A stretch of 64,000 nt of DNA from Escherichia phage moha. Position numbers and translations under genes: made by a program. Location of the stretch: the sequence record MN850590.1. One strand, 5' to 3'. Shown one piece after another: positions 1,234 through 59,179 of this stretch. The notes below the pieces were generated by a model. The model was not told where the DNA came from and ran no database searches. It worked only from the letters and a program-made list of their open reading frames with translations. The number at the start of each line of letters is the position of its first letter. Within the stretch, counting starts at the first letter, position 1.

Positions 1234-1263
1234 GTTTACAACCGCTAAAAACTGTGTTAAGAT
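1234..1263 (+). promoter_or_regulatory. T4-type early promoter
   Basis: GTTTACA -35, about 18 bp spacer, TAAGAT -10. Confidence 0.5.
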
Positions 1264-1291
1264 ATTCTTACTTACTCAAGAGGAGAACAAT

Positions 1292-1519
1292 ATGTTAAAT
1301 CGTTGGATTAAACCTAATAACACATTAGGTGCTTTGATTGCTCAAGAAGTTTCGTTGAAATACGGTCTTGGATATTACGATGATGTAGTCGTACACTCAT
1401 TCATGATGGATGGCGAAGACGTCAAATTTAATGCCGAAATCCGTTGGGATGATGGTGGTGTTCGTTTTGTTCGAGGAACAATTAATGCTTACGATACTGA
1501 AGAAGTTGTTTGCTGTTAA
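1292..1519 (+). CDS. hypothetical protein
   Basis: ATG with AGGAGA RBS; ORF-track start is TTG upstream. Confidence 0.45.
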   Translation: MLNRWIKPNNTLGALIAQEVSLKYGLGYYDDVVVHSFMMDGEDVKFNAEIRWDDGGVRFVRGTINAYDTEEVVCC

Positions 1520-1532
1520 GCCAGGCGAAGGT

Positions 1533-1733
1533 ATGATGCCTATTCCTGATACACACGAAAAAAGTTGGGAATATATCGGTGACGGAATGATGGAAGAAGT
1601 TGTTCGTCCAAAAACAAAACAGGTTAATGCTTCAAGCTCTTCCGATTATAATCATTCATACGTATCGTCTTGGCCTGGTGATTCCGGGTCAAGTTATTCT
1701 GATTGTGGTTCAAGCTCAGGGAGCTGCGAATGA
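1533..1733 (+). CDS. hypothetical Ser-rich small protein
   Basis: first ATG after previous stop, GAAGG RBS. Confidence 0.4.
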   Translation: MMPIPDTHEKSWEYIGDGMMEEVVRPKTKQVNASSSSDYNHSYVSSWPGDSGSSYSDCGSSSGSCE

Positions 1734-1909
1734 ACAAGATAGTTAAATGGTTTAAAAGCTGGGACGATGGTGTCGGTCCAGAAGATTGGCTGGATGTTCT
1801 TGAAGAGAATATGGCTAAAGAATTCCAGAAACATGAAGAAAAGCTCGTCGAAGATGAAGGCGAACGTATTGTAAAACTTTATATGGGTGAACCATCGAGG
1901 AAATTATAA
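1730..1909 (+). CDS. hypothetical protein
   Basis: ATGA start-stop overlap with upstream ORF. Confidence 0.4.
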   Translation: MNKIVKWFKSWDDGVGPEDWLDVLEENMAKEFQKHEEKLVEDEGERIVKLYMGEPSRKL

Positions 1910-2373
1910 TGGATGCTATGTTATTTAAAATGTATTTGCTTGAAGCCAAGTCGTTTAAACATATACCAGTAGAAGATAAGACTCCACTAGAAATAGCTAT
2001 TCTCATTAACAAAAGTCTAAATAATCCGCAATATATCGTAGAAGAATTCTGCAAATTGCAGATTCCTAAAGGTTACAAAATTCGTGTAGAGCGAGTTGGA
2101 GCTATTACTCGTTCTAAAAATTCTCCGTTTAGTCTTGAAGAAGGCATAAAGGACTTAGGTTATGAATCTACGGAAAATGCCGTTTATGCGAATCCTGAAA
2201 AGCGTTTAGACTTGTTTGAAAAGCGAGACCACAAGTATTTTGCCAAAAAATACTTTATTACATCATTAGCAGATTTAATCCATTTGCAACGAGCTATTTG
2301 GAAATTTTTTAAGACAAAAGGTGTAGCACTAGAAACATTCTCTGAACCTGCTAGTTTTTATTTAGGTGAATAA
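1909..2373 (+). CDS. hypothetical protein (at the map position of T4 mrh)
   Basis: 154 aa; TAATG overlap; position between soc and modB-like genes. Confidence 0.5.
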   Translation: MDAMLFKMYLLEAKSFKHIPVEDKTPLEIAILINKSLNNPQYIVEEFCKLQIPKGYKIRVERVGAITRSKNSPFSLEEGIKDLGYESTENAVYANPEKRLDLFEKRDHKYFAKKYFITSLADLIHLQRAIWKFFKTKGVALETFSEPASFYLGE

Positions 2374-2374
2374 T

Positions 2375-2554
2375 ATGGACCTTATGAGTATGTTTGACGA
2401 GCCTGAAGTTGAGGCTCCTAAAGTGCATCGTAGTGAACTTGTTGATGAACTAGATAGTATTATACAGCGTCATGGATTTAGTTTACCATTAGATGTCCTG
2501 AAAGACCTCGCCTCTTATTATGATGACCCTCCACCATGGAGTCCTTGGAAATGA
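2375..2554 (+). CDS. hypothetical acidic protein
   Basis: ATG with AGGTGA RBS. Confidence 0.4.
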   Translation: MDLMSMFDEPEVEAPKVHRSELVDELDSIIQRHGFSLPLDVLKDLASYYDDPPPWSPWK

Positions 2555-2715
2555 AAGAGAAATTGAAAGAGAAATTCTTACTAGAAATCAAGGAAAAAGA
2601 CTTTGAGACATGGTATCGAATGGTGAAAGGGTTGACATTGCTTTTTAAAGCATCCTTATTCATGTTAGAACAACCTGGTCCTGATGGTCCTTTAGTAGGA
2701 AAGCTTAAAAAGTAG
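2551..2715 (+). CDS. hypothetical small protein
   Basis: ATGA overlap with preceding ORF; 54 codons; not in ORF track. Confidence 0.3.
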   Translation: MKEKLKEKFLLEIKEKDFETWYRMVKGLTLLFKASLFMLEQPGPDGPLVGKLKK

Positions 2716-2743
2716 TTTACATTCCCTCCTCTCGTGTTATGAT
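2715..2743 (+). promoter_or_regulatory. T4-type early promoter
   Basis: GTTTAC, 17 bp spacer, TATGAT. Confidence 0.55.
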
Positions 2744-2770
2744 AGGCTTATCTTTAAATGGAGGTCTATC

Positions 2771-3352
2771 ATGACATGTCAATCTGAACTTCAAGAACGT
2801 GAATACCTAACAAATCTGATTGATAGCAAATTCACCCGCCAAGAACAAAACATTCTCTGGGCTTGCACCGATTCTAAGGAAGACCCGGATTTCCACTATG
2901 AATTAGACCATCTTGTTCGTAAGCATATGACTTCTACAGTACCAGTAGAACTCTACCGTGGTGTAACTCCAGAAGAAGTAGAACGTCTTTCACTTCTTTC
3001 TGTTGGATGCCATTGGTCTCCTGGACGAGTAACATCGTTCACAACTGATTTCAGTACAGCTCGTCAATTCTCTGGGAGATGGGAATATCAGACGTACACT
3101 ATTCTTAGTCTCAGGAATGCTCCATTCATTTTTGATTACTACCAAAACATGATTAACATTGTACTCGCCGGAAAGAACCCTAAGCATGTTATGGAAGAAA
3201 AGCGTGTTGACGTCTTAGATATGATTGAATCCGAACAAGAGTACATGGTCTCAGGTATCTCTAGATTTGAGATTGTGGAAATTGAAGACTTAGAATATGA
3301 CCCTTTATCTCGATTATACAAAATCATTCATTTGAAAATGTTGAATTTTTAG
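2771..3352 (+). CDS. modB: ADP-ribosyltransferase, ModB-like
   Basis: paralog of the next ORF; YRG motif; position between soc and srd as in T4. Confidence 0.55.
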   Translation: MTCQSELQEREYLTNLIDSKFTRQEQNILWACTDSKEDPDFHYELDHLVRKHMTSTVPVELYRGVTPEEVERLSLLSVGCHWSPGRVTSFTTDFSTARQFSGRWEYQTYTILSLRNAPFIFDYYQNMINIVLAGKNPKHVMEEKRVDVLDMIESEQEYMVSGISRFEIVEIEDLEYDPLSRLYKIIHLKMLNF

Positions 3353-3382
3353 TGTACAAACTCTTCCAATGATGATACTATT
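3352..3382 (+). promoter_or_regulatory. T4-type early promoter
   Basis: GTGTACA -35 and GATACTAT -10 region. Confidence 0.5.
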
Positions 3383-3410
3383 ACCTTTATCAACCACAGG
3401 AGAAACCTAA

Positions 3411-4019
3411 ATGTTTATGCCGTATAACGAGTGTGAAATTGAAGAAATGGTTCGTCGTGCTCAAAACCCCGAATATCAAGATGTATTGCAGTACGAAATT
3501 GATAGTCAATTCAGCGACATTGAACAAAGTGTACTGTGGCAGTGTATGGAAAACAAGCCAGACTGTATTCAACAGGAGTTAAGTTCAATCGTTCGTAGAA
3601 ATTGGACGTCTTCTGTTCCTGAGACAATGTATCGTGGAATCTCTAAGAAAACTATGGCCACACTTGATGATAAAGGCATTGGTAGTATTATTAAATTTGA
3701 CAGAGTAATGAGCTTCAGCCCAGTGTTCGGTGTAGCACGTAACTTTGCTTCGTATAATTTTTACGGAACATTTAATATGTTCTGCATCAAAGATGCACCA
3801 TTTGCTTTCAACTTCCGTGAACATATGCTTAACATGATTCTGGCTGCGCCATCTTGTGAGTTCAATGGAGCTTTCCCTGAAGCGACAAGACGGTCTAATG
3901 CTAGACTTATATCCGACGAATGTGAATTTATGCTCCCTATAGGGACTACACTGCGTGTAGATTCTATTATTCAGGATGGACGTTATACAATCTGGAATCT
4001 GTCTATTGTCAGTTACTGA
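3411..4019 (+). CDS. modA: ADP-ribosyltransferase, ModA-like
   Basis: paralog of 2771..3352; YRG motif; position directly upstream of srd. Confidence 0.55.
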   Translation: MFMPYNECEIEEMVRRAQNPEYQDVLQYEIDSQFSDIEQSVLWQCMENKPDCIQQELSSIVRRNWTSSVPETMYRGISKKTMATLDDKGIGSIIKFDRVMSFSPVFGVARNFASYNFYGTFNMFCIKDAPFAFNFREHMLNMILAAPSCEFNGAFPEATRRSNARLISDECEFMLPIGTTLRVDSIIQDGRYTIWNLSIVSY

Positions 4020-4093
4020 CTGAATTGGAATAACCGAATGGAACTCAGAACCATTATAACACATAAAAAATTAAAGCATTTTACGAAAAAAGA

Positions 4094-4122
4094 GTGTACA
4101 CTACCTGAGGGCATGATATTAT
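4094..4122 (+). promoter_or_regulatory. T4-type early promoter
   Basis: GTGTAC, 17 bp spacer, TATTAT. Confidence 0.5.
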
Positions 4123-4172
4123 AAGCTTATCAGCTAAATGACCTTAACGTCCGTAAGACAGAGGAAAATATT

Positions 4173-4919
4173 ATGTTATCAAATAATAAAATTAACAAAA
4201 TCAATCGTCGTCTTGACCACACCAGAGCTTCTGCGAAGAGACGCTCTAAGGATTTTAACTTAGACTTTAATTACCTTAAAAACATTCTTGATCAAAAGGT
4301 CTGCGCTTACTCAGGTGAATCTTTTAATAACTCTGTTGAAGGTGAGAAATTATCCTTAGAACGTTTTAATAATGATATAGGCTACATTAAAGGTAATGTT
4401 ATCCCAGTTAAGAAAAAATATAACACGGCTCGTTCTGATTTAACACTAGAAGAACTTATTGAGAAACGTGACGCTGTTGCAAGACGTATTGCTAATCCTT
4501 CTGCCCGTAAAGTAGAGAAACTTAATCTCGACGAGAAGAAATGGGCCCAAATTAAAAAGGTTTACGGTACTATTTTAAAAATCCGAGCAAAACGTGAAAA
4601 TCGTGTTAAGCATATGGCGAACATGATGAAAAATCAACCTTTATCTAACGAATCTAAACTTAGAATTGTTGCTTTGAAAGCACGCATTAATGGCTCACAT
4701 CAAGCAGAAGGCCATGAACTTACTAAACTCAACGTTCTTCTTAAAGGCTCTGACTGGAAAACTAAAACTAAATTAACTGACGCTGAATCGCTTTTCGATA
4801 CATATGATAAAGTTATCCAAGGTCTGCAACGTTTTGAAAAGATTGGTTTCATTGGTAAATTAAAATTGAAACGTGGCTTACCACTTAGCGCATCATTATT
4901 CCAACTGATTAAAGGTTAA
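4173..4919 (+). CDS. srd: Srd-like protein
   Basis: 248 aa; position between modA and dda.1 as in T4. Confidence 0.5.
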   Translation: MLSNNKINKINRRLDHTRASAKRRSKDFNLDFNYLKNILDQKVCAYSGESFNNSVEGEKLSLERFNNDIGYIKGNVIPVKKKYNTARSDLTLEELIEKRDAVARRIANPSARKVEKLNLDEKKWAQIKKVYGTILKIRAKRENRVKHMANMMKNQPLSNESKLRIVALKARINGSHQAEGHELTKLNVLLKGSDWKTKTKLTDAESLFDTYDKVIQGLQRFEKIGFIGKLKLKRGLPLSASLFQLIKG

Positions 4920-4921
4920 TT

Positions 4922-5233
4922 ATGGTTTATGTATATGCAATAGTTTATCGAGATATGGAAGGATTTACTGTCCCGGTTCCACTTGATGAGCATCGTCCTG
5001 CAGTATTTTTTAGAAAGGATATTGCAGATAAAGTTTTCGATACTTTGAAAACACAGTATAAAACAGATTTAAAAATGGGAGTTCTAAGAATGGTCGAAAC
5101 TCCGCGTAAGTTCTGGTTTAATAAGCTTGAAATGAAACACGTTAAACTAGATGCGGAGACGCAAAGATTGTATCAACGAATCCTAGACACAGGCCGTATT
5201 GTTAGTATTCCAATTGCAGGGACTTTACGATGA
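4922..5233 (+). CDS. hypothetical protein (dda.1 position)
   Basis: 103 aa; ATGA overlap with dda start. Confidence 0.5.
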   Translation: MVYVYAIVYRDMEGFTVPVPLDEHRPAVFFRKDIADKVFDTLKTQYKTDLKMGVLRMVETPRKFWFNKLEMKHVKLDAETQRLYQRILDTGRIVSIPIAGTLR

Positions 5234-6543
5234 CATTTGATGATTTGACTGAAGGCCAGAAAAACGCCTTCAACGTTGTTATGGAAGCTATTAAAGAAAA
5301 GAAACATCATGTAACTATTAATGGACCGGCTGGTACAGGTAAAACAACACTTACTAGATTTATTGTTGAAGCTCTTATTTCTTCAGGAGAATCAGGTATT
5401 ATTTTAGCAGCCCCTACACATGCTGCTAAAAAGGTTCTAAGCAAACTTGCTGGTCAAGAAGCATCGACTATTCATAGCATTCTTAAAATCAACCCAACTA
5501 CATACGAAGAAAACGTATTGTTTGAACAGAAAAAGGTTCCCGACTTAGCCTTGTGTCGTGTACTGTTATTTGATGAAGCGTCAATGTGCGACCGTTCTCT
5601 GTTTAAAATAATGTTAGCTAGTATCCCTAAATGGTGTACAGTAATTGGAATCGGCGACAGATGCCAGATTCGTCCGGTAGACCCAGGCGAATCAACTGCG
5701 TATCTAAGTCCTTTCTTCACTCACAAAGACTTCGTGCAATGCAACCTTACAGAAGTTAAACGTAGCAATGCACCAATTATTGATGTTGCGACTGATATTC
5801 GTAATGGCAAATGGATTTATGATAAAGTAGTTGATGGGCACGGTGTTCATGGATATACAGACCTTAAATCGTATATGATGAACTATTTTAACGTCGTTAA
5901 AACTCCTGAAGACCTTTTCGAAAATCGAATGATGGCATTCACAAATAAGTCGGTGGATAAGTTAAATTCAATTATTCGCCGAAAACTTCTTGAAACAGAA
6001 AAACCATTTATTAAAGACGAAGTCATTGTTCTACAAGAGCCGTTTACTAAGACGTACAAGCTAGATGGTAAAAATATGACCGAAATGCTTTTCAATAACG
6101 GGCAATTCGTTCGTATTCGAGATGCTGTAGAAACGTCTACATTCGTTAAAGCACGTGGTGTTTCAGGCGAATATATGATACGATACTGGAATCTTACAGT
6201 AGAAACATATGGTGATGATGAAGAATACATCCGCGAGGATATAAAGGTTATTTCTTCTGAAGAAGAGCTTTATAAATTCAATTTGTTTTTGGCTAAGACC
6301 GCAGAAACATACAAATTCTGGAATAAAGGTGGTAAAGCCCCATGGAGCGAATTCTGGGATGCTAAACGCATGTTCACTAAGGTGAAGGCACTACCTGTAT
6401 CAACCTTCCATAAGGCCCAGGGTATATCTGTTGACACGGCCTTTGTTTATACACCGTGTATCCATTATGCCGATTCAGAATTAGCCAAACAATTACTATA
6501 TGTCGGCACTACTCGTGGTCGTTTTGACGTCCATTTTATTTGA
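5230..6543 (+). CDS. dda: Dda DNA helicase (SF1B)
   Basis: Walker A NGPAGTGKTT; 437 aa versus T4 Dda 439 aa. Confidence 0.9.
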   Translation: MTFDDLTEGQKNAFNVVMEAIKEKKHHVTINGPAGTGKTTLTRFIVEALISSGESGIILAAPTHAAKKVLSKLAGQEASTIHSILKINPTTYEENVLFEQKKVPDLALCRVLLFDEASMCDRSLFKIMLASIPKWCTVIGIGDRCQIRPVDPGESTAYLSPFFTHKDFVQCNLTEVKRSNAPIIDVATDIRNGKWIYDKVVDGHGVHGYTDLKSYMMNYFNVVKTPEDLFENRMMAFTNKSVDKLNSIIRRKLLETEKPFIKDEVIVLQEPFTKTYKLDGKNMTEMLFNNGQFVRIRDAVETSTFVKARGVSGEYMIRYWNLTVETYGDDEEYIREDIKVISSEEELYKFNLFLAKTAETYKFWNKGGKAPWSEFWDAKRMFTKVKALPVSTFHKAQGISVDTAFVYTPCIHYADSELAKQLLYVGTTRGRFDVHFI

Positions 6544-6552
6544 GAGAAAATT

Positions 6553-7230: not shown

Positions 7231-7235
7231 AATCA

Positions 7236-7265
7236 GTTTACAACCAAGGATGGTTGGAGTATAAT
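7236..7265 (+). promoter_or_regulatory. T4-type early promoter
   Basis: GTTTAC, 18 bp spacer with palindrome ccaaggatggttgg, TATAAT. Confidence 0.6.
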
Positions 7266-7793: not shown

Positions 7794-7823
7794 TTGTACA
7801 TCCAAGGATGGATGGAGTATAGT
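7794..7823 (+). promoter_or_regulatory. T4-type early promoter
   Basis: TTGTACA, spacer palindrome ccaaggatggatgg, TATAGT. Confidence 0.55.
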
Positions 7824-8749: not shown

Positions 8750-8778
8750 GTTTACTTCTCCTCTGGTTTTGATATTAT
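8750..8778 (+). promoter_or_regulatory. T4-type early promoter
   Basis: GTTTAC, 17 bp spacer, TATTAT; lies inside a 13 bp inverted repeat whose distal arm contains the RBS. Confidence 0.55.
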
Positions 8779-8804
8779 AACCATATCAACCAGAGGAGAA
8801 TAAT

Positions 8805-9329
8805 ATGTTAGTTTACCGCGTAGAACGTAGTTTTTGTACTCAACGTGAATCATTACCCGGAATTGCTATCGAAGACGGTAAAGCCGTCAGAATTTGGGAA
8901 ACCTCTTGGAATAAAGAACCTCGCTCGCCGTACGGTTGGTCGGGTACCGACAACTCTGAAGAAACATGGGAGTTCCTTGATAAACACGGAATACTCTCAG
9001 GTAACTTCTACCATCACGGCGACAACTATAATGTCCCTAATCGTCCTACAGTAAATGAAGACAAACTCCTTGAACAAAATATCTTAAGATACTATAGAAT
9101 TGAGCACACATTTGAATTGAGTGAAGATTGGGCTCAAGGGTTCTATTTTGGATTTGAAAGTGTTGACGCGGTTTATACATGGTTTGATGACCAGGTGGAT
9201 GTTGAACTCTTGAAAGCTAAAGGATACTACATCGCGGTCTATGAAGCACCTGATTTCATACTCGGAAGTTGTCAATTAATGTTCAGACGTTCATTAGCAG
9301 AACAAGTTGATTTTATTTTGCTAAAATGA
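8805..9329 (+). CDS. hypothetical protein
   Basis: 174 aa; ATG with AGGAGA RBS. Confidence 0.55.
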   Translation: MLVYRVERSFCTQRESLPGIAIEDGKAVRIWETSWNKEPRSPYGWSGTDNSEETWEFLDKHGILSGNFYHHGDNYNVPNRPTVNEDKLLEQNILRYYRIEHTFELSEDWAQGFYFGFESVDAVYTWFDDQVDVELLKAKGYYIAVYEAPDFILGSCQLMFRRSLAEQVDFILLK

Positions 9330-9359
9330 TGTACAACAACTATGGTCTATGATACTATA
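9329..9359 (+). promoter_or_regulatory. T4-type early promoter
   Basis: ATGTACA -35-like, GATACTAT -10 region. Confidence 0.45.
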
Positions 9360-10208: not shown

Positions 10209-10631
10209 ATGGCTTTTAAAGGTTTTGAAGTTGGTAAGAAATATCGTATTATTAAAGGACAGGAAGATAATTTCTTGAGAATTCTTAATACGACTGGTAA
10301 ACGTCTTAACACTACTCTGCATACAGTTTTATTATCAAGAGATTTTATTGTAGAAGAGATGATTGGTTATGGTGTTTCAATGATTGCCGCTGAAACCGAT
10401 GGACCTGGACGTACAATCATTAGTATGCAAGGTGATATTCTAATTTACGGTGCAGAATTTAAATTCTTTGAAGAAGTTCCTGAATCAGATACAGCCGTAG
10501 ATTTCAAAAAAGGCTCTATAGAATTTGTTGATGGTTCGGTGATCGTATCAGGTGATGTGGTCATTACAGTTAAAAGTGAACAAGGGCGTTTGGCTGCAAT
10601 TGATGCACTTCAGAAAATTAAATTTAAATAA
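10209..10631 (+). CDS. hypothetical protein (goF/39.x region)
   Basis: 140 aa directly upstream of gene 39. Confidence 0.5.
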   Translation: MAFKGFEVGKKYRIIKGQEDNFLRILNTTGKRLNTTLHTVLLSRDFIVEEMIGYGVSMIAAETDGPGRTIISMQGDILIYGAEFKFFEEVPESDTAVDFKKGSIEFVDGSVIVSGDVVITVKSEQGRLAAIDALQKIKFK

Positions 10632-10648
10632 GGGCTTCGGCCCTTTTT
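10632..10648 (+). terminator. intrinsic terminator hairpin (UUCG loop) with T-run
   Basis: gggc-ttcg-gccc then TTTTT. Confidence 0.6.
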
Positions 10649-10694: not shown

Positions 10695-12512
10695 ATGATT
10701 AAAAATGAAATTAAGGTATTGTCAGATGTAGAACATATTAAGAAACGTAGTGGTATGTATATTGGTTCTTCTGCTAAAGAAGCACATGAGCGTTTTTTGT
10801 TTGGTAAATATCAACAAGTTGAATATGTTCCTGGTCTGGTTAAATTAATCGATGAGATTATTGACAACTCGGTTGATGAATCTATTCGTACATCATTTAA
10901 GTTTGCAAATAAAATTGATGTGCAAATTAAAAATAATCAAGTTTCGGTGGAAGATAACGGACGTGGTATTCCTCAAGGTTTAGTTACCGACCAAACAGGT
11001 GAACAAATTCCTGGGCCTGTAGCAGCCTGGACTATTCCAAAGGCTGGTGGTAACTTTGGTGATGATTCTGAACGCAAGACTGGTGGTATGAACGGCGTCG
11101 GGAGTAGTTTAACTAATATCTTCTCTACGTTGTTTACAGGCATCACGTCAGATGGCGAAAATGAAATCACTGTTAATTGTTCAAACGGAATGGAAAACAA
11201 ATCATGGTCTTCTAAGAAATCTAAATGTAAAGGCACTAAAGTAATCTTCACTCCTGATTTCTCTTCATTTGAAGAGCATAATTTATCTCAAATTTATTTA
11301 GATATTACTTTAGACAGACTTCAAACATTGGCAGTCGTTTATCCTGATATCAAGTTCACATTTAATGGTAAAAAGGTTGATGGTAATTTTAAACGATTTG
11401 CTAAACAATTTGGTGAAGATAACATCATTCAAGAAAATGATAAAGTCTCTATAGCATTCACAACATCACCAGATGGCTTCCGTCATTTAACTTATGTGAA
11501 TAACATCCATACTAAAAATGGTGGTCATCATGTTGAATGTGTAATGGATGATATCTGCGAACATCTTTTGCCCGGTATTAAAAAGAAATATAAGGGTATT
11601 GAAGTCACTAAAGCTCGTGTTAAAGAATGTCTCACAATGTTGATGTTTATTAGAGACATGAGCAACATGCGTTTTGATTCTCAGACTAAAGAACGTTTAA
11701 CGTCAACGTATGGTGATATTCGTAATCATATCCAATTAGATGCTAAGAAAATTGCTCAGGCACTTCTTAAAAACGAAGCCTTGATTATGCCTATTGTTGA
11801 AGCAGCATTAGCTCGTAAATTGGCAGCAGAAAAGGCTGCAGAAACTAAAGCAGCTAAAAAGGCAACTAAAGCTAAGGTTCATAAGCATATTAAAGCTAAC
11901 CAATGTGGTAAAGATGCAGATACGACATTGTTTTTAACAGAAGGTGATTCGGCAATTGGTTATCTCATTGATGTTCGTGACCGTGAACTACACGGCGGAT
12001 TCCCATTACGTGGTAAGGTGATGAATAGCTGGGGTATGTCATATGCTGATATGATGAAGAACAAAGAGCTCTTTGATATCTGTGCTATCACGGGTCTTAT
12101 TCTTGGTGAAAAGGCAGAGAATACGAACTATCGTAATATTGCAATTATGACCGATGCCGATCATGACGGTCTTGGAAGTATCTATCCGGCTTTGCTTGCT
12201 TTCTTTAGTAATTGGCCTGAATTGTTTGAACAAGGACGTATTCGCTTTGTTAAAACACCTGTAATTATTGCACAAATTGGCAAAGCTCAAAAATGGTTTT
12301 ATACTGTAGCTGAGTATGAAGAAGTTAAAGATACACTGCCTAAGCATAGTATTCGATACATCAAGGGATTAGGCTCCCTTGAAAAGTCAGAATATCGTGA
12401 AATGATTCAGAACCCTGTGTACGACGTAGTTAAACTTCCTGAAAATTGGAAAGAACTCTTTGAAATGTTGATGGGTGATGATTCAGAACTTCGTAAAGAA
12501 TGGATGTCCTAA
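10695..12512 (+). CDS. 39: DNA topoisomerase II large subunit (GyrB-like ATPase plus TOPRIM), fused 39/60 form
   Basis: GHKL N-box IIDNSVDE, TOPRIM LTEGDSA, 605 aa continuous ORF. Confidence 0.92.
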   Translation: MIKNEIKVLSDVEHIKKRSGMYIGSSAKEAHERFLFGKYQQVEYVPGLVKLIDEIIDNSVDESIRTSFKFANKIDVQIKNNQVSVEDNGRGIPQGLVTDQTGEQIPGPVAAWTIPKAGGNFGDDSERKTGGMNGVGSSLTNIFSTLFTGITSDGENEITVNCSNGMENKSWSSKKSKCKGTKVIFTPDFSSFEEHNLSQIYLDITLDRLQTLAVVYPDIKFTFNGKKVDGNFKRFAKQFGEDNIIQENDKVSIAFTTSPDGFRHLTYVNNIHTKNGGHHVECVMDDICEHLLPGIKKKYKGIEVTKARVKECLTMLMFIRDMSNMRFDSQTKERLTSTYGDIRNHIQLDAKKIAQALLKNEALIMPIVEAALARKLAAEKAAETKAAKKATKAKVHKHIKANQCGKDADTTLFLTEGDSAIGYLIDVRDRELHGGFPLRGKVMNSWGMSYADMMKNKELFDICAITGLILGEKAENTNYRNIAIMTDADHDGLGSIYPALLAFFSNWPELFEQGRIRFVKTPVIIAQIGKAQKWFYTVAEYEEVKDTLPKHSIRYIKGLGSLEKSEYREMIQNPVYDVVKLPENWKELFEMLMGDDSELRKEWMS

Positions 12513-12535
12513 GCTCCTTCGGGAGCTTCATTTTA
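12512..12535 (+). terminator. intrinsic terminator hairpin (UUCG loop)
   Basis: agctcc-ttcg-ggagct then T-rich. Confidence 0.55.
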
Positions 12536-17136: not shown

Positions 17137-17160
17137 GGGGACTTCGGTCCCCTTTTTTCT
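17137..17160 (+). terminator. intrinsic terminator
   Basis: gggga-cttcgg-tcccc then TTTTTT. Confidence 0.7.
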
Positions 17161-17965: not shown

Positions 17966-17995
17966 GTTTACAACTAAGTAGGACTATGATATATT
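17966..17995 (+). promoter_or_regulatory. T4-type early promoter
   Basis: GTTTACA, TATATT; palindrome taggacta/tagtccta flanks -10. Confidence 0.55.
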
Positions 17996-18021
17996 AGTCC
18001 TATCTAAAAGAGGATAACATC

Positions 18022-18474: not shown

Positions 18475-18504
18475 GTTTACATCACGGTAGGATTATGGTA
18501 TAGT
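18475..18504 (+). promoter_or_regulatory. T4-type early promoter
   Basis: GTTTACA, 18 bp spacer, TATAGT. Confidence 0.55.
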
Positions 18505-18735: not shown

Positions 18736-18765
18736 TTGTACAAACTCTTGAGAGCAGAGTATAAT
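18736..18765 (+). promoter_or_regulatory. T4-type early promoter
   Basis: TTGTACA, TATAAT flanked by palindrome gagagca/tgctctc. Confidence 0.6.
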
Positions 18766-18809
18766 GCTCTCATGGATTACAAAAACATTAATCAATTGAG
18801 GAAATTAGC

Positions 18810-20925: not shown

Positions 20926-21001
20926 GTGCCCTAGCCTTAGGATTTCTCGGTGCAATAGCTGTACTAGTGATTTGGCTGTATTGGTTGGACAAACATGATT
21001 A

Positions 21002-21023
21002 GGGAGCTTCGGCTCCTTTTTTG
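21002..21023 (+). terminator. intrinsic terminator
   Basis: ggagc-ttcg-gctcc then TTTTTT. Confidence 0.7.
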
Positions 21024-21043: not shown

Positions 21044-21072
21044 GTTTACATGTGCTTCAAACATGATATTAT
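21044..21072 (+). promoter_or_regulatory. T4-type early promoter
   Basis: GTTTACA, 17 bp spacer, TATTAT; upstream of motA. Confidence 0.6.
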
Positions 21073-23559: not shown

Positions 23560-23605
23560 TAATGGTACTATATCCATATCAACTAAGTGGAATGAATAAA
23601 ACGTT

Positions 23606-34407: not shown

Positions 34408-34437
34408 GTTTACGCTTTCAAATGAGTGTGTTACTAT
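34408..34437 (+). promoter_or_regulatory. T4-type early promoter for rnh
   Basis: GTTTAC, 18 bp spacer, TACTAT. Confidence 0.55.
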
Positions 34438-37653: not shown

Positions 37654-37676
37654 GGGAGACTTCGGTCTCCCTTTTG
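37654..37676 (+). terminator. intrinsic terminator after gene 32
   Basis: gggagac-ttcg-gtctccc then TTTT. Confidence 0.75.
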
Positions 37677-37702
37677 AGTATCTGTAAATTGCCGAAAAAG
37701 TT

Positions 37703-37731
37703 GTTTACTTCTTACCTGGATGTGTTAGTAT
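37703..37731 (+). promoter_or_regulatory. T4-type early promoter
   Basis: GTTTAC, 17 bp spacer, TAGTAT. Confidence 0.55.
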
Positions 37732-37760
37732 AGACCTATCAACAACATGAGGAAATCAAA

Positions 37761-38153: not shown

Positions 38154-38181
38154 TTTATAACAAGATAGGGCTACTATAACA
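38153..38181 (+). promoter_or_regulatory. T4-type early promoter
   Basis: GTTTATA -35-like; -10 region flanked by palindrome tagggcta/tagcccta. Confidence 0.5.
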
Positions 38182-38216
38182 TAGCCCTATCAAATAAAAG
38201 TGAAGAGGAGAATAAA

Positions 38217-44630: not shown

Positions 44631-44659
44631 TTTACATACCACAAGGATTGTGGTACAAT
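44630..44659 (+). promoter_or_regulatory. T4-type early promoter
   Basis: GTTTACA, TACAAT. Confidence 0.5.
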
Positions 44660-45814: not shown

Positions 45815-45844
45815 GTTTACAAACACCAAGGATGGTGATACTAT
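45815..45844 (+). promoter_or_regulatory. T4-type early promoter
   Basis: GTTTACA, spacer palindrome caccaaggatggtg, TACTAT. Confidence 0.55.
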
Positions 45845-47005: not shown

Positions 47006-47220
47006 CTAAAGAACAGCATGAATACATTAAAGGGCTTATCTATGAATCTGAAATGGCGGCTATGATTTATGGACGCCAGATTCAACGATTAGAATCTTTG
47101 CCTCCGACTAATGACCGCTTGTTAGTTCAGTCTCGTGCTAATCTGAAAAATGAATATCAGAATAAGTGGGCAGTAGCGACTAAAGCTCTTCATGAGTATA
47201 TTGAATCTTTAGTAAAATAG
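46996..47220 (+). CDS. hypothetical protein
   Basis: 74 aa. Confidence 0.45.
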   Translation: MPMTKEQHEYIKGLIYESEMAAMIYGRQIQRLESLPPTNDRLLVQSRANLKNEYQNKWAVATKALHEYIESLVK

Positions 47221-47249
47221 TTTACAAACTCTCGGGAGCAGAGTATAAT
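47220..47249 (+). promoter_or_regulatory. T4-type early promoter
   Basis: GTTTACA, TATAAT flanked by palindrome gggagca/tgctcc. Confidence 0.6.
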
Positions 47250-47277
47250 GCTCCTATGGATAATTGAGGAAATCTAA

Positions 47278-49346: not shown

Positions 49347-49376
49347 GTTTACAACGCGGTGGAGTTGTGATATGAT
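49347..49376 (+). promoter_or_regulatory. T4-type early promoter
   Basis: GTTTACA, 18 bp spacer, TATGAT. Confidence 0.5.
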
Positions 49377-51732: not shown

Positions 51733-51755
51733 GGGAGACTTCGGTCTCCCTTTTG
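51733..51755 (+). terminator. intrinsic terminator
   Basis: gggagac-ttcg-gtctccc then TTTT. Confidence 0.7.
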
Positions 51756-51787
51756 TGCGTTTAGGGCAGAAAAAGTTTAAAAAAAAT

Positions 51788-51816
51788 GTTTACTCTCCTG
51801 TAGGATGTGTTACTAT
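51788..51816 (+). promoter_or_regulatory. T4-type early promoter
   Basis: GTTTAC, 17 bp spacer, TACTAT. Confidence 0.55.
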
Positions 51817-51858
51817 AGACTTGTACCACCTAATCGATAAAACAAACCGGAGAACAAA

Positions 51859-52231: not shown

Positions 52232-52260
52232 GTTTACTTTGGTACAGGTTATGTTATTAT
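52232..52260 (+). promoter_or_regulatory. T4-type early promoter
   Basis: GTTTAC, 17 bp spacer, TATTAT; palindrome ggtacagg/cctgtacc spans the -10. Confidence 0.55.
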
Positions 52261-52301
52261 AGACCTGTACCAACAAACAACTTAAACATCTGGAGAATAA
52301 A

Positions 52302-53317: not shown

Positions 53318-53347
53318 TGTACATCCAAGGACGGATTAGAGTATAAT
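53317..53347 (+). promoter_or_regulatory. T4-type early promoter
   Basis: GTGTACA, TATAAT. Confidence 0.55.
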
Positions 53348-54228: not shown

Positions 54229-55049
54229 AGCCTACTATTTTGACTGATATTGATGGTGTATGTTTAAGCTGGCAATCTGGACTTCCTTATTTTGCCCAAA
54301 AATATAACCTTCCATTAGAACATATTTTAAAAATGATTCAGGACGAAAAATTTATTTCTCCTGGTAAACTGTTCAATACCGACGATAACCTTGGTAAACA
54401 ATTAATAGAAAAATATAATAGCTCTGATTTTATTCGTTACTTAGCGCCTTATTCTGATGCTCTTCGAGTTATCAATAAACTAAAAGAAGACTATAATTTT
54501 GTAGCCGTGACGGCGCTAGGTGATTCAATTGATGCTCGATTGAATAGACAATTTAATTTGAATGCTTTGTTCCCAGGCGCTTTCTCTGAAGTAATGATGT
54601 GTGGTCATGATTCTTCAAAGGAACAATTATTCGAACTAGCTAAAACAAAATATAACGTGATTTGTTACGTTGACGATTTAGCTCATCATTGTGACCATGC
54701 AGCAGAAATTCTTAATGTACCGATTTATTGGTTGGCTCGTGGTGAACGTGATGCCATTCCTCGTACTGCACAACGTGTACACACGTGGGATGATATTGAA
54801 TCTCGTTTGGTTCTGCCTAAGAATAATTCAGATTCAGATCGTGAAGACCTTTTAAAACGATTGGCGGATTTGCTTAAAGAATCTGGTGCAACAAGCCCAG
54901 GTGCATGGCCTAATCAAATTGGTGGCCCCTCGACAACACGTACTCCATATACCTGGCGAACCCCAGGACCAACTGATATGCAGCCGTGGTGGACGATTCA
55001 AAACTTTCCTTTAGATTCGTCTAAATGGACTTGGTCTATAAATTGTTAA
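54225..55049 (+). CDS. HAD-superfamily phosphatase-like protein with Pro/Trp-rich C-terminal tail
   Basis: HAD motif I ILTDIDGV and later VDDL aspartates; ATGA overlap with NADAR gene. Confidence 0.6.
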   Translation: MKPTILTDIDGVCLSWQSGLPYFAQKYNLPLEHILKMIQDEKFISPGKLFNTDDNLGKQLIEKYNSSDFIRYLAPYSDALRVINKLKEDYNFVAVTALGDSIDARLNRQFNLNALFPGAFSEVMMCGHDSSKEQLFELAKTKYNVICYVDDLAHHCDHAAEILNVPIYWLARGERDAIPRTAQRVHTWDDIESRLVLPKNNSDSDREDLLKRLADLLKESGATSPGAWPNQIGGPSTTRTPYTWRTPGPTDMQPWWTIQNFPLDSSKWTWSINC

Positions 55050-55058
55050 GGGTTAATT

Positions 55059-55328
55059 ATGTTTGTAGTTCATGATATTACAGATGGCAAAAATACCACA
55101 CGTGACTACGGTCACGTTAACATGTTCTTTCGAGACTGGCCATTGTTTCGTTCAGTAAAAGACGCAGAAATATTTAAAGAGTGTGTTGAACAAGGGTTCA
55201 TCTACATTTCAGAATACTATGTTGAAGGACTCGGTAAATGGATTACAACTTATCAGAAAACGCTGAAATCGCTTCTAGATGAAGTGGCTTATAATAGAAC
55301 CGTAACCAAAATCGAGGACATCAAATGA
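55059..55328 (+). CDS. hypothetical protein
   Basis: 89 aa; overlaps ligase start. Confidence 0.45.
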   Translation: MFVVHDITDGKNTTRDYGHVNMFFRDWPLFRSVKDAEIFKECVEQGFIYISEYYVEGLGKWITTYQKTLKSLLDEVAYNRTVTKIEDIK

Positions 55329-56818
55329 TTTTAGATATTTTAAACCAAATAGCTGCGATCGGTTCTACTAAAACAAAACAAGAAATCCTTAAGAAAAATA
55401 AGGACAACAAATTACTTGAACGTGTGTATCGTTTAACATATGCACGTGGTATCCAGTATTATATTAAGAAATGGCCAGGACCAGGTGAAAGGTCTCAAGC
55501 GTATGGTCTTCTTGAATTAGATGACATGTTGGATTTTATTGAGTTCACATTAGCCACTCGTAAACTCACTGGTAATGCTGCAATTAAAGAGCTCATGGGT
55601 TATATCGCTGATGGTAAACCTGATGATGTAGAAGTCCTTCGTCGTGTAATGATGCGCGACCTTGAAGTAGGTGCTTCAGTGTCTATCGCGAATAAGGTGT
55701 GGCCTGGACTTATTCAATTGCAACCACAGATGTTAGCATCTGCATATGACGAGAAATTGATTACTAAAAATATTAAATGGCCCGCATTTGCCCAATTAAA
55801 AGCAGACGGTGCTCGTTGTTTCGCTGAAGTTCGCGATGATGGTGTTCAATTCTTTTCTCGTGCCGGCAACGAATATCATGGTCTTACTCTATTAGCGGAT
55901 GAACTAATGGAAATGACTAAAGAAGCTCGTGAAAGACACCCTAATGGGGTTTTAATCGACGGTGAATTAGTTTACCATTCATTTGATATTAAAAAGGCTG
56001 TGAGCTCAGGAAATGACCTGTCGTTCTTATTTGGTGATAATGAAGAATCCGAAGAAGTACAAGTTGCGGACCGTAGCACTTCAAACGGTTTAGCAAATAA
56101 ATCTCTTCAAGGGACTATTTCTCCTAAAGAAGCTGAAGGTATGGTTCTTCAAGCCTGGGACTATGTTCCTTTAGATGAAGTCTATTCTGATGGCAAAATT
56201 AAAGGTCAGAAATACGATGTTCGTTTTGCTGCTCTTGAAAATATGGCTGAAGGCTTTAAACGAATTGAGCCAATTGAAAATCAGTTAGTTCGTAATCTTG
56301 ACGAAGCTAAAGTGGTTTATAAAAAATATGTTGACCAAGGTCTTGAAGGTATTATCCTTAAAAACCGTGATTCATATTGGGAAAACAAACGTTCTAAGAA
56401 CCTAATTAAATTTAAAGAAGTTATTGATATCGCTTTAGAAGTTGTAGGATACTATGAACACTCTAAAGACCCTAACAAATTAGGTGGTGTCGAACTCGTA
56501 TCACGTTGTCGTCGTATTACAACCGATTGTGGTTCAGGGTTTAAAGATACAACTCATAAAACAGTTGATGGTGTAAAGGTTCTTATTCCTTTAGATGAGC
56601 GACATGATTTGGACCGTGAACGATTAATGACCGAAGCTCGTGAAGGTAAATTGATTGGACGTATTGCTGATTGTGAATGCAATGGTTGGGTTCATTCTAA
56701 AGGACGTGAAGGCACTGTAGGTATTTTCCTCCCAATTATTAAAGGGTTCCGTTTTGATAAAACAGAAGCGGATTCGTTTGAAGACGTATTTGGACCGTGG
56801 TCCCAGACAGGTTTATAA
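55325..56818 (+). CDS. 30: ATP-dependent DNA ligase
   Basis: adenylation motif I KADGARC; 497 aa (T4 gp30 487). Confidence 0.92.
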   Translation: MILDILNQIAAIGSTKTKQEILKKNKDNKLLERVYRLTYARGIQYYIKKWPGPGERSQAYGLLELDDMLDFIEFTLATRKLTGNAAIKELMGYIADGKPDDVEVLRRVMMRDLEVGASVSIANKVWPGLIQLQPQMLASAYDEKLITKNIKWPAFAQLKADGARCFAEVRDDGVQFFSRAGNEYHGLTLLADELMEMTKEARERHPNGVLIDGELVYHSFDIKKAVSSGNDLSFLFGDNEESEEVQVADRSTSNGLANKSLQGTISPKEAEGMVLQAWDYVPLDEVYSDGKIKGQKYDVRFAALENMAEGFKRIEPIENQLVRNLDEAKVVYKKYVDQGLEGIILKNRDSYWENKRSKNLIKFKEVIDIALEVVGYYEHSKDPNKLGGVELVSRCRRITTDCGSGFKDTTHKTVDGVKVLIPLDERHDLDRERLMTEAREGKLIGRIADCECNGWVHSKGREGTVGIFLPIIKGFRFDKTEADSFEDVFGPWSQTGL

Positions 56819-57006
56819 TGAAAGCTTATTTAGAAACAGTTATTGTAGCTAAGAAGGATGGTGGAGATGTTTCCACCTCTTGCTCTCAGATTATATTAGA
56901 TTTTCCTAATGAAAATTCGTATCGGGTTTTCGTAGATAACGTTAATGGGTACGAAAAAGGCCCTAATTTTGAAGTTTATCGTACTTTGCTCCCGATTGTG
57001 GATTAA
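56818..57006 (+). CDS. hypothetical protein
   Basis: 62 aa; TAATG overlap with ligase stop. Confidence 0.4.
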   Translation: MKAYLETVIVAKKDGGDVSTSCSQIILDFPNENSYRVFVDNVNGYEKGPNFEVYRTLLPIVD

Positions 57007-57026
57007 GAGCCTTCGGGCTCTTTTTG
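57006..57026 (+). terminator. intrinsic terminator
   Basis: gagcc-ttcg-ggctc then TTTTT. Confidence 0.7.
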
Positions 57027-57061
57027 GCATAAATATAAATTATTACTAAAAGGAAAACACT

Positions 57062-59149
57062 ATGTCTGAACAAATAAACGAAGTGTTTGAATCTGAAGGC
57101 AGTCTTCCTGTCGTCAATTTGAACCCTAAAGCTAAAGTTCCACAAGTCTGGAAAATTGGTGATATCGATACAAATATTGTAGTTCGTTTATTCTCTTACC
57201 TTTCCGAAGGCGACGCTGTAAAACAAGTTAAACTTGGCGACAAATACGCTCATGTTGTTATTATGAGTCTGTCTGAAAAGGGTAATCTCGCTGAATTGAA
57301 AAATGGCCTTGGTCCTGCTCCTATTGATGCAATCAACACCATTTTCAATACAGTATATGAACAAGTTAAAGCTCTTCGTATGGATGCAGTTCTGTTCCGA
57401 TTCCCTACCAAGAAATTGAAAGGACGTGGACAACAGCTTCAAACTCTTCTTGCTCGTTTAGTTTCTACTAAAACCGGTGGTCGTTTTAAAGTATTGTCGG
57501 CAATGTATCAATTCACAGGTAAACACACCTATGTGATGATGGTTCGTAAAAATGCCAACATTGAAGATATTAAAGGCATCCCTAACATTAACACAGAGTT
57601 GTACACGAAAGTAGATTCTGATGTTGGCGAAGTTTATGTGAGTAAAAAGACTGGCGAAACGGTTACCAAAGAAACTGCTATCGCTGGTTCTATTGCCGCG
57701 GTAGAAGAAAAACGTAAAGATAAGCCTGTTATTGCTCGCACCAAAATTTCTCGTCGTGCTATTGCAGCAAGTCAATCTTTAGAAGCTGACCGACAAGAAG
57801 GTGAGTTATTCCAGAAATACGAAAATTCTGCTAAAGAAGTTAGTGGCCCAGCTACAGCCGAATTACTTCCTGAAGCATATGAAATCGTACTAGCCCAAGC
57901 ATCGTCCACAGCAAAAGGCACTTTAGTTGCTGATATCGAAAATAAGATTTATAATCGTATTGATGAATCCTTTAAATTTGCTGATGAAGTTTCTTATGGT
58001 AGTGTTATTAAGCCGACTTTAGAAAAGTTTGCTAAGAAAATTAAAACCGAAAAAACAACATCTGTTAAAGCATTAGCTGCTTTTGTTGAAGCTGCAAATG
58101 AAATTGCAGACTCTATTAAAGACGAATGGTTTGAAGATTTTAGACGTGATAATTTCCAATTGCCTGACGACGTTTTAGCTGAAGTATCTGAAAGAACTTG
58201 GAAACAACGTAAATCAGCGTTCTTGTCTAATGTGATGTATACTTATGCACGAGAATCGGCTAGAGGCACCTTTAATATAACAATGAATCGGGACCCTAAA
58301 CAATACTCTGTTGCTGAAAAACGAGCTATTCGCGAATATGCCTCTTCTGCGTATACCGATATCAATAATATGTTGTTAGGCCGGTATAAACCGGATTTTT
58401 ATGATGTTGCAGATGAAGATGAAGTTAAACGCGCTATTGATGGTCTTGATTCGGCGTTTTTAAATGGAGACCGTTTACCTGAAGGACTAACGTTGTATAG
58501 AGCCCAGTCTATCAGAATGCCTATTTACGAAGCAATGGTTAAAAATAAGGTATTCTACTTCAGAAACTATGTTTCTACTTCATTAGCTCCTATTATTTTT
58601 GGTGGGTTTAAAGAGAACGTTGCCCTTGGACTTGCTCCTGAAGAAGTTCGCAAAGAGCTTAACATTGACAATAATGACGAAGGTGTTACTATTTCTCCTA
58701 GTCAAGTAAGAACAGCTATGCATGCACCAGAACAAATCCGTGTTAACGTTGGATGGGCTATCGATGGCGCCCATAAAGTTAACGTGATTTACCCGGGTCA
58801 GTTGAGTAATCACCCTAATGAGCAAGAAATTATTTTGCCTAGAGGCATTCTCTTGCAGATAAATAAAATTACAGATGCGTCATCTGACACTGGTGCAGGT
58901 TTAGAATCCAACCTTAAATTTATTCAAGCTGAAGTCATGTCCTCGGACCAGTTGGACGAAGCTGTCATTTACGATGGTGATGTTCTCATGGAAACAGGCG
59001 AGGTAGTTGCTATGACGGGTGAAATCGAATCAGATGAGCCGGTATCTTTTGCCTCATTTGTAGAAAAAACTAGTGCACCTAAAGGTTTGAAATTGTTAGC
59101 ATCTTTAATGGATTTAGAATCAGTTCCGTTTAAATTTATCCAAGGATAG
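57062..59149 (+). CDS. alt: Alt-like ADP-ribosyltransferase (virion-packaged)
   Basis: 695 aa (T4 Alt 682); position between ligase 30 and baseplate gene 54. Confidence 0.7.
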   Translation: MSEQINEVFESEGSLPVVNLNPKAKVPQVWKIGDIDTNIVVRLFSYLSEGDAVKQVKLGDKYAHVVIMSLSEKGNLAELKNGLGPAPIDAINTIFNTVYEQVKALRMDAVLFRFPTKKLKGRGQQLQTLLARLVSTKTGGRFKVLSAMYQFTGKHTYVMMVRKNANIEDIKGIPNINTELYTKVDSDVGEVYVSKKTGETVTKETAIAGSIAAVEEKRKDKPVIARTKISRRAIAASQSLEADRQEGELFQKYENSAKEVSGPATAELLPEAYEIVLAQASSTAKGTLVADIENKIYNRIDESFKFADEVSYGSVIKPTLEKFAKKIKTEKTTSVKALAAFVEAANEIADSIKDEWFEDFRRDNFQLPDDVLAEVSERTWKQRKSAFLSNVMYTYARESARGTFNITMNRDPKQYSVAEKRAIREYASSAYTDINNMLLGRYKPDFYDVADEDEVKRAIDGLDSAFLNGDRLPEGLTLYRAQSIRMPIYEAMVKNKVFYFRNYVSTSLAPIIFGGFKENVALGLAPEEVRKELNIDNNDEGVTISPSQVRTAMHAPEQIRVNVGWAIDGAHKVNVIYPGQLSNHPNEQEIILPRGILLQINKITDASSDTGAGLESNLKFIQAEVMSSDQLDEAVIYDGDVLMETGEVVAMTGEIESDEPVSFASFVEKTSAPKGLKLLASLMDLESVPFKFIQG

Positions 59150-59179
59150 TTTACAAACACATGGATGTGTGATACTATC
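59149..59179 (+). promoter_or_regulatory. T4-type early promoter
   Basis: GTTTACA, spacer palindrome cacatggatgtg, TACTAT. Confidence 0.5.

Follow-up and report, generated by a model that had tools for sequence, protein, structure and literature searches.

Inverted repeats in the early promoters of Escherichia phage moha match PeSL-type stem-loops and fit a structure in read-through RNA

The early promoters of Escherichia phage moha (sequence record MN850590.1) carry palindromes in the spacer between the -35 and -10 hexamers or around the -10. In a window of 64,000 nucleotides, the whole stretch of DNA analysed here, these palindromes are real and exceed what the promoter consensus itself supplies. 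They fit better as a structure in read-through RNA, i.e. in transcripts arriving from an upstream early promoter, than as a DNA or protein recognition element. In their sequence features, the elements match the PeSLs, or promoter-early stem-loop elements, described for the phages phi1 and RB49, in which a strong early promoter is combined with a stem-loop (Arbiol et al. 2010, PMC2839356), here in a phage group not covered by the PeSL papers. The stem-loop probably forms only in read-through transcripts, which would make the promoter a compact boundary or insulator element.

Early promoters and their embedded stems

A position-weight scan of both strands of the window returned 22 promoter sites on the plus strand and none on the minus strand. 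Together with two added sites, 18736 (TTGTAC) and 7794 (TTGTAC...TATAGT), this makes 24 promoters spanning positions 1234-59178 (Table 1), in agreement with the estimate of about 24 plus-strand early promoters made by a model that had seen only the letters (the sequence-only reading). The layout proposed there, a GTTTAC or GTGTAC -35, a spacer of 17-19 nt and a TATAAT-like -10, was recovered as well, with TTGTAC as a further -35 variant. Counted in the canonical TTTACA register instead of from the GTTTAC-type hexamer, the spacer is 16-18 nt, and most promoters combine TGn with a TAnnnT -10. A+T accounts for 77.5% of the 20 nt preceding the -35, compared with 62.2% for the window and a maximum of 69.4% in 2000 random sets of 24 sites. 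In most cases, -1 to 12 nt separate the upstream stop codon from the -35. The leaders are about 20-38 nt long with GAGG or GGAG before the ATG, the Shine-Dalgarno sequence (SD) and start codon standing at the 3' end of the element. Low-scoring matches at 1508, 21633, 49102 and 51363 were not counted, being inside open reading frames (ORFs) or of poor score.

All six palindromes listed in the sequence-only reading were found where it had placed them, five of them having the -10 hexamer enclosed between their arms. Among the 24 promoters, about nine have a strong stem spanning the -10 and four to five a stem within the spacer. The stems at 2715, 3352, 23542, 53317 and 59149 are weak or ambiguous, and the promoters at 1234, 4094, 21044, 34408, 37703 and 51788 are stem-less.

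The contribution of the consensus was assessed with chimeras, in which the 5' half of one promoter is joined to the 3' half of another; these retain consensus and composition, and only site-specific complementarity is lost. Summed over the window promoters, the longest inverted repeat amounts to 144, compared with 114 ± 4.4 in the chimeras, and none of 20,000 permutations reached 144 (p < 5e-5). The summed minimum free energy is -225.8 kcal/mol versus -152.2 ± 12.6 kcal/mol in the chimeras (z = -5.8). Against dinucleotide shuffles, nine window sites reach z values of -3.2 to -7.5, and the four stem-less promoters tested lie near z = 0. Stems wholly internal to the spacer need a control of their own, for which shuffled spacers were used: a spacer-internal stem of at least 5 bp is present in 20.5% of 127 non-redundant promoters, compared with 4.0% of the shuffled spacers. 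The consensus does supply part of the palindromic look, being G/T-rich before the -10 and C-rich after it (TGATA...TATCA), and for this reason the chimeras also fold somewhat. Native folds exceed both chimeras and shuffles, which settles whether the palindromes are merely as frequent as the consensus would make them and indicates a genuine, selected regularity.

The comparison was extended to relatives, from which 38 loci surrounding gene 52 (protein identity 47-99%) and seven surrounding a different early gene were sampled. A stricter promoter model, consisting of the -35 block and the -10 hexamer only and therefore unable to select for palindromes, identified 166 and subsequently 268 sites, all of them on the early-gene strand of these loci and none on the opposite strand. 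For 69 non-redundant promoters unlike any window promoter, the difference between native and chimeric folds corresponds to z = -9.7. For 126 non-redundant T4-type promoters it is z = -15.8, with an excess of at least 5 kcal/mol in 41 of the 126 versus 3.7% of chimeras. As the RefSeq record of T4 has no promoter features, T4 was scanned with the promoter matrix of the present analysis. Its first 50 kb show the same feature (z = -2.6), including two long stems which reach the SD; a T4 stem, GGGACCA-gagTATAA-TGGTCCC, is located between motB.1 and motB.

Pairing is kept while the arms diverge

One promoter family, ACAAACTC-N9-GAGTATAAT (also TACAAACTC-N9-GAGTATAAT), was pulled from a viral collection by its non-arm bases only. 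A stem of 7-8 bp around gagTATAA is retained in each of the 27 distinct members. In an alignment of 22 sequences, with 17 distinct arm pairs, 96% of the cells pair, compared with 36-56% when the 3' partner is slid; five of the eight pairs vary on both sides (24 cells), and none of 500 shuffles reached the observed covariation. Pairing is likewise kept through substitutions in the orthologous promoters of 49347 and 52232.

A single helix in a fixed position was considered as a description of all stems and rejected, since a column-pair covariation map of 92 promoters anchored on the -10 showed that no register dominates. On the i+j = 1 diagonal, z = 3 is exceeded by a single pair, and the top two pairs are artefacts of 17- versus 18-nt spacers. 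Without a dominant register, no single covariance model was built.

Five promoters share a CCAAGGATGG-like spacer motif with the loop AGGA or AAGGA (7241-7256, 7799-7814, 44637-44655, 45824-45837 and 53323-53336). Its arms covary (CAACCA/TGGTTG, ATCCA/TGGAT, TACCACAA/TTGTGGTA and CACCA/TGGTG, with more variants in relatives), and the G-rich loop is conserved.

Members of the ACAAACTC-N9-GAGTATAAT family precede unrelated genes, namely ndd (18736-18776), an ORF of 99 aa of unknown function (47220-47256) and, in T4, motB (~7215). Relatives have several copies per genome, with at least four from one contig. From the sequences, this behaviour fits a mobile regulatory cassette. At P51788, the 3' flank (agacttgtacc) includes agacttgtaccacc, which is nearly identical to the P52232 3' arm (agacctgtaccaac), with no complementary 5' arm; P51788 (51788-51830) may be either a recombinant promoter or one whose stem decayed behind an acquired terminator.

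Such copies raise the question of whether the stems are functionless passengers of strong promoters, left by duplication and recombination of promoter cassettes (PeSL shuffling) or by templated quasi-palindrome mutation. The recurrence of one family before unrelated genes, its several copies per genome and the orphan arm at P51788 would be in line with this. So would the enrichment in promoter cores of alignment breakpoints relative to related phages (12 of 155 versus 2.8% expected, p = 0.001), although this enrichment is confounded by gene boundaries. That the stems are neutral is very unlikely, however, given that pairing has been kept through many two-sided substitutions across divergent phages; moreover, neither the sense-strand G·U bias nor the dependence on a missing upstream terminator, both described below, would be expected of neutral sequences.

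Strand bias and geometry favour RNA over DNA

Imperfect pairs in the stems are mostly those tolerated in sense RNA. Interior non-Watson-Crick pairs number 16 G·T and 6 A·C, against a ratio of 121:152 in the chimeras (p = 0.007), and 56 of the 516 pairs in sense folds are G·U, versus 20 of 464 in antisense folds (p = 1e-4). The alignment of the ACAAACTC-N9-GAGTATAAT family has 17 G·U and 3 A·C pairs, the latter at the outermost pair only.

The position of the hairpins was determined relative to a start site (+1) predicted as the 7th base after the -10. In the 41 strong hairpins among the 126 promoters, the 5' arm ends at -20 to -10. The end of the 3' arm is bimodal, at -2 to +7 in 28 cases and at +12 to +19 in 13, and the loops have a median of 8 nt (range 3-15). 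As the 5' arm always precedes the predicted start of its own promoter, the hairpin could not form in RNA begun there. Furthermore, the spacers pair with their own leaders more strongly than with those of other promoters (z = -5.4), and 15 of the top 22 cases have the SD within the paired segment. The clearest case of the window is P8750, in which the stem joins the spacer to GAGGAG, the SD belonging to the gene at 8805.

These observations bear on the suggestion, made in the sequence-only reading, that the regularity is an extra layer of recognition by a protein or a DNA structure beyond sigma-70 contacts. The inverted repeat would then extrude as a cruciform or hairpin, or bind a dimeric phage or host protein, thereby aiding or regulating RNA polymerase at the -10. 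This part of the reading did not hold up and is considered highly improbable. The commonest symmetry centre does lie on the first -10 bases (the i+j = 1 diagonal) with the -10 in the loop, which a DNA-level element could explain. Yet the register varies, only the single column pair mentioned above exceeding z = 3 on that diagonal, and the arms have no common sequence, as illustrated by the number of arm pairs within one family. The stems also work energetically on either strand (p < 5e-5 in a minus-strand chimera test of the window stems), but where pairing is imperfect, the sense strand has G·T and not A·C. The loops are longer than extrusion would favour, the 5' arm, at about -27 to -15, is outside the transcription bubble, and a third of the strong stems reach the SD, which would be meaningless for DNA recognition. 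Nor does this account predict that stems are lost behind an upstream terminator. An extra consensus in T4 early promoters has been left unexplained (Hinton 2010) and might be counted in favour of DNA recognition; the reviews of T4 early promoters mention this consensus and no palindromes. Taken together, arm diversity, variable register, long loops, G·T bias and dependence on terminators fit RNA better than recognition of DNA or by a protein.

Relation to terminators

Canonical terminators of the window have a GC stem, a UUCG loop and a T-run. Besides those in Table 1, they are found at 10630-10645, 12511-12528, 17137-17152 and elsewhere. The UUCG tetraloop with C-UUCG-G closing is present in almost all of them (e.g. 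17137-17152, 1197-1218 and 10630-10645), and several, owing to their symmetry, are called on both strands.

The four promoters located at most 90 nt after a terminator (1234, 21044, 37703 and 51788) are all stem-less, as is 34408, which opens a unit. At most promoters abutting the upstream stop codon (gap of at most 12 nt), a stem is present. Among non-redundant promoters, a strong stem was found in none of 15 with an upstream terminator versus 24 of 77 without (Fisher p = 0.007). In a larger set, the counts are 2 of 20 and 39 of 106, respectively (Fisher p = 0.014; Mann-Whitney p = 0.0014).

This inverse relation could mean that the stems are ordinary Rho-independent terminators of the upstream gene, overlapping the next promoter to save space. 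Their location 0-12 nt past the upstream stop codon and their absence where a canonical terminator is present agree with this, and promoter-terminator overlap is reported to be common in bacteria (Fletcher et al. 2026, bioRxiv 10.64898/2026.08.19.745784). In addition, one tested PeSL stem-loop reduced expression of downstream lacZ about as much as rrnB T1 (PMC2839356). However, none of the 41 strong stems is followed by a T-tract (at least 5 T in the next 8 nt), from which it follows that the embedded stems are not canonical intrinsic terminators. A terminator scan called no plus-strand promoter stem while it did call the UUCG terminators of the window, and the loops are long and A/U-rich compared with the GC-rich tetraloop terminators of this genome. 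The bacterial promoter-coupled type is also built differently, with the hairpin on the -35 and the T-tract before the -10. Ordinary terminators are therefore judged an unlikely explanation.

An 18-mer, GGGAGACTTCGGTCTCCC, is identical at 37654-37671 and 51733-51750, and the identity extends through TTTTG (23 nt). A similar early promoter (ggatgtgtTA[G/C]TATagac) is present 30-40 nt downstream of both copies, and the two regions (37654-37760 and 51733-51845) look like a duplicated terminator-plus-promoter cassette.

Proposed role of the stem-loops

The probable explanation, as stated above, is a PeSL-type RNA stem-loop confined to read-through transcripts. Such an element would consist of a strong sigma-70 early promoter (UP-like A/T tract, GTTTAC -35, TGn and -10) with a stem-loop packed into it. 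Its 5' arm would lie in the spacer, and its 3' arm either in the spacer, just past the -10 and as far as about +1 to +7, or over the SD at 12-19 nt into the leader. The hairpin would form solely in sense RNA arriving from an upstream early promoter, where it most likely marks the cistron boundary, by attenuating read-through or by defining or stabilising the 3' end; pausing, Rho entry, 3'-end protection or processing might each be involved. In the subset with long stems, the next gene would have its ribosome-binding site hidden in read-through RNA. Each early gene would then rely mainly on its own promoter, and at tightly abutted gene junctions the hairpin may replace the separate UUCG-loop terminator used elsewhere in the genome.

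Several points weigh against this explanation. About 10 of the 24 window promoters have a weak stem or none, and two of these (4094 and 23542) also lack an upstream terminator. The promoters are inter-related, so that the z-scores overstate their independence, and the start sites are predicted, not mapped. The anticorrelation with terminators was noticed before being tested and is only moderately significant. Part of the G·U excess could reflect a C-to-T bias on the non-template strand. With a mean of 1.68 T after the strong stems versus a background of 1.61, a T-tract that would end transcription is missing, and a literature search for transcript-end mapping in T4-type phages found none.

Beyond the single element, the embedded stems might represent a general grammar of 'transcript-origin discrimination' in the early regions of Tevenvirinae, in which RNA arriving from upstream folds a hairpin unavailable to RNA begun locally, and in which the stems are functionally interchangeable with canonical terminators and insulate tandem genes at the level of both RNA and translation. 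This broader view is tentative and rather less likely than not to apply as a whole.

The early regions of T4-type phages are long tandem arrays of very strong promoters with few recognisable terminators, and the separation of their units is not well understood. An action of the hairpins confined to read-through RNA, if it applies, would explain why small early genes behave as autonomous, portable cassettes, and it would fit modular shuffling. It would also make the elements compact promoter/insulator parts for synthetic biology. For annotation, the extra regularity of T4-type early promoters should not be taken for a new DNA-binding site.

Genes and features of the window

A 4-kb probe of the window matched an Escherichia/Shigella myovirus group at about 98% identity. 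The best annotated relative is E. coli O157 typing phage 6 (NC_041864), a Mosigvirus (RB69-like, Tevenvirinae), and by these matches the window is that of a Mosigvirus, an RB69-like T4-type coliphage. The plus strand carries early genes, with PHROG matches to modA/modB-like genes, srd, motB, cef, ndd, motA, asiA, rnh, RNA ligase 63 and alc, and by comparison with the annotated relative, rIIA/rIIB, denB and gene 52 belong to the region. A tail-fibre block occupies the minus strand at about 25.1-34.4 kb, P34408 being the first plus-strand promoter past it. The promoters thus serve classical early genes as well as small unknown ORFs. At the gathering threshold, Rfam gave no matches in the whole window (1-64000), i.e. 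no recognised RNA family there.

Two tandem modA/modB-like paralogues (RNA polymerase ADP-ribosylase) are encoded at 2771-3352 and 3411-4019. Each has an early promoter of its own, the -35 of which shares bases with the stop codon of the ORF before it. Over +1 to +10, the sequence predicted to be transcribed first is strongly conserved in most early promoters, with ATCAAC, often ATCAACAAC (e.g. at 8785, 9365, 37738, 45851 and 59185), and most leaders are C/A-rich and G-poor as far as the SD. This could be a preference in start site or initial transcription, or an unstructured tract accessible to Rho or RNase.

Table 1. Early promoters, selected canonical terminators and previously listed palindromes of the window (promoters are named after the first base of the -35)
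Feature	Position	Strand	Promoter elements	Gene or context	Stem or sequence
P1234	1234..1270	+	-35 1234-1239; -10 1258-1263; +1 ~1270		No embedded stem (z -0.4)
P2715	2715..2774	+	-10 2738-2743	modA/modB-like gene at 2771	Moderate, 2737-2753/2760-2774; -10/discriminator pairs with SD and start codon of the gene at 2771
P3352	3352..3402	+	-10 3376-3381	Second modA/modB-like gene	Weak, CTCTT 3361-3365 (spacer) / AGGAG 3398-3402 (SD)
P4094	4094..4129	+	-10 4117-4122	Upstream of srd	No significant stem
P7236	7236..7272	+	-10 7260-7265		Spacer-internal, CAACCA 7241-7246 / TGGTTG 7251-7256, loop AGGA
P7794	7794..7830	+	TTGTAC; -10 7818-7823	motB	Spacer-internal, 7799-7804/7809-7814 (ATCCA-agga-TGGAT)
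P8750	8750..8800	+	-10 8773-8778; +1 ~8785	Gene at 8805	18 bp, 8756-8775/8783-8800; perfect 13-bp arms TTCTCCTCTGGTT/AACCAGAGGAGAA; encloses -10 and +1; -23.7 kcal/mol, z -6.1
P9329	9329..9365	+	ATGTAC; -10 9353-9358	cef	9344-9351/9356-9363 (z -4.1)
P17966	17966..18003	+	-10 17990-17995		17978-17986/17995-18003 (TAGGACTA/TAGTCCTA), -10 in loop; z -3.7
P18475	18475..18514	+	-10 18499-18504		12 bp, 18485-18496/18503-18514, with sense-strand G·U; z -3.8
P18736	18736..18776	+	TTGTAC; -10 18760-18765	ndd	18746-18756/18765-18776 (TGAGAGCA/TGCTCTCA); z -3.75
P21044	21044..21079	+	-10 21067-21072	motA	No embedded stem (z +0.25)
P23542	23542..23580	+	-10 23566-23571	asiA	Weak bulged stem only, 23558-23565/23574-23580
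P34408	34408..34444	+	-10 34432-34437	rnh	No embedded stem (z +0.74)
P37703	37703..37738	+	-10 37726-37731		No embedded stem (z +0.86)
P38153	38153..38191	+	GTTTAT; -10 TAACAT 38177-38182		Perfect 10 bp, 38164-38173/38182-38191 (GATAGGGCTA/TAGCCCTATC); -16.4 kcal/mol, z -7.5
P44630	44630..44666	+	-10 44654-44659	RNA ligase gene 63	Spacer, 44637-44644/44648-44655 (TACCACAA-gga-TTGTGGTA)
P45815	45815..45851	+	-10 45839-45844	alc	Spacer, CACCA 45824-45828 / TGGTG 45833-45837
P47220	47220..47256	+	-10 47244-47249	P18736 family	47234-47240/47249-47255 (GGGAGCA/TGCTCC); z -3.2
P49347	49347..49387	+	-10 49371-49376		11 bp, 49357-49367/49377-49387, with sense-strand G·U; z -4.6
P51788	51788..51823	+	-10 51811-51816		No stem
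P52232	52232..52273	+	-10 52255-52260		52239-52253/52258-52273; perfect 11-bp arms TTGGTACAGGT/ACCTGTACCAA; z -5.0
P53317	53317..53354	+	GTGTAC; 19-nt spacer; -10 53342-53347		Weak 4-bp spacer stem only, ATCC-aaggac-GGAT
P59149	59149..59185	+	-10 59173-59178		6 bp, TGGATG 59162-59167 / CATCCA 59179-59184; not significant by itself (z = -0.5 versus dinucleotide shuffles)
Canonical terminator	1197..1218	+		15 nt upstream of P1234	AAGGAATCC-UUCG-GGATTCCTT + T6
Canonical terminator	21001..21018	+		Upstream of P21044	AGGGAGC-UUCG-GCTCCTT + T-run
Canonical terminator	37654..37671	+		Upstream of P37703	GGGAGAC-UUCG-GTCTCCC + T-run
Canonical terminator	51733..51750	+		Upstream of P51788	GGGAGAC-UUCG-GTCTCCC + T-run
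Listed palindrome	7241-7256	+			CAACCA/TGGTTG
Listed palindrome	17979-18002	+			TAGGACTA/TAGTCCTA
Listed palindrome	18749-18772	+			TGAGAGCA/TGCTCTCA
Listed palindrome	38164-38191	+			GATAGGGCTA/TAGCCCTATC
Listed palindrome	47234-47255	+			GGGAGCA/TGCTCC
Listed palindrome	52239-52273	+			TTGGTACAGGT/ACCTGTACCAA

Comparison with known systems

The sequence-only reading had allowed that the palindromes may partly be known architecture, an apt remark. According to Arbiol et al. (2010, PMC2839356), the PeSLs of phi1 and RB49 combine a strong sigma-70-like early promoter, an A/T-rich upstream tract and a stem-loop, which is most often located between the two hexamers or overlaps the -10; recombination of PeSLs was demonstrated as well. 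PST/T4 and nt-1/KVP40 were added by Comeau et al. (2014). The elements of the window share the strong sigma-70-type early promoter, the A/T-rich upstream tract, the packed stem-loop and the SD and start codon on the 3' side. Their stem position varies with the same two commonest classes, G-T pairs are also drawn in the published stems, and in both cases one cassette recurs upstream of different genes. Having every sequence-level feature of PeSLs, they are classed as such. They differ in that the host here is a Mosigvirus (RB69-like), which neither paper treats, and in that the RB49 stems are of the G(n)...C(n) type, unlike those of the window. A figure legend of Comeau et al. (2014) places the T4/PST stem-loops 'just upstream' of the promoter, whereas many stems here and in T4 bracket the -10. 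Statistics on covariation, a sense-strand bias, pairing of the SD and an inverse relation to canonical terminators are reported in neither paper; the roles proposed in the published description are limited to termination or attenuation and to recombination. A literature search for functional follow-up of PeSLs found none.

In the bacterial promoter-coupled terminators (Fletcher et al. 2026), termination and initiation signals of tandem units likewise share short intergenic DNA. There, the hairpin overlaps the -35 and the T-tract is located just before the -10, whereas the stems described here enclose the -10 and have no T-tract.

Inverted repeats at phage early promoters are also known from the virion RNA polymerase promoters of coliphage N4, in which short stems with 3-nt loops and conserved bases are read as extruded DNA. 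The promoters of the window differ in being plain sigma-70 promoters with loops of about 8 nt, non-conserved arms, a variable register and a pairing bias that points to RNA.

The closest parallel for the long stems might be T4 e, soc, 49 and I-TevI, for which a promoter inside an SD-sequestering hairpin is established (Uzan & Miller 2010, PMC3014915). In both cases, the 5' strand of the hairpin is upstream of the promoter start, and the SD or start codon is covered by its 3' strand. The structural mask is therefore present in long transcripts and absent from those initiated locally, which for the window is a matter of predicted structure and predicted start. This predicted geometry is found at P8750, more weakly at P2715 and P3352, and in 13 of the 41 strong stems in relatives. 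The difference is that the known internal promoter is a gp55 late promoter and exerts temporal control, whereas here it is an early sigma-70 promoter (GTTTAC ... TAnnnT). Both types of transcript would consequently be made simultaneously, and the effect would be insulation of neighbouring early units. The tentative 'transcript-origin discrimination' reading would thus extend the SD masking of e, soc, 49 and I-TevI from late to early promoters, going beyond the published description of PeSLs.

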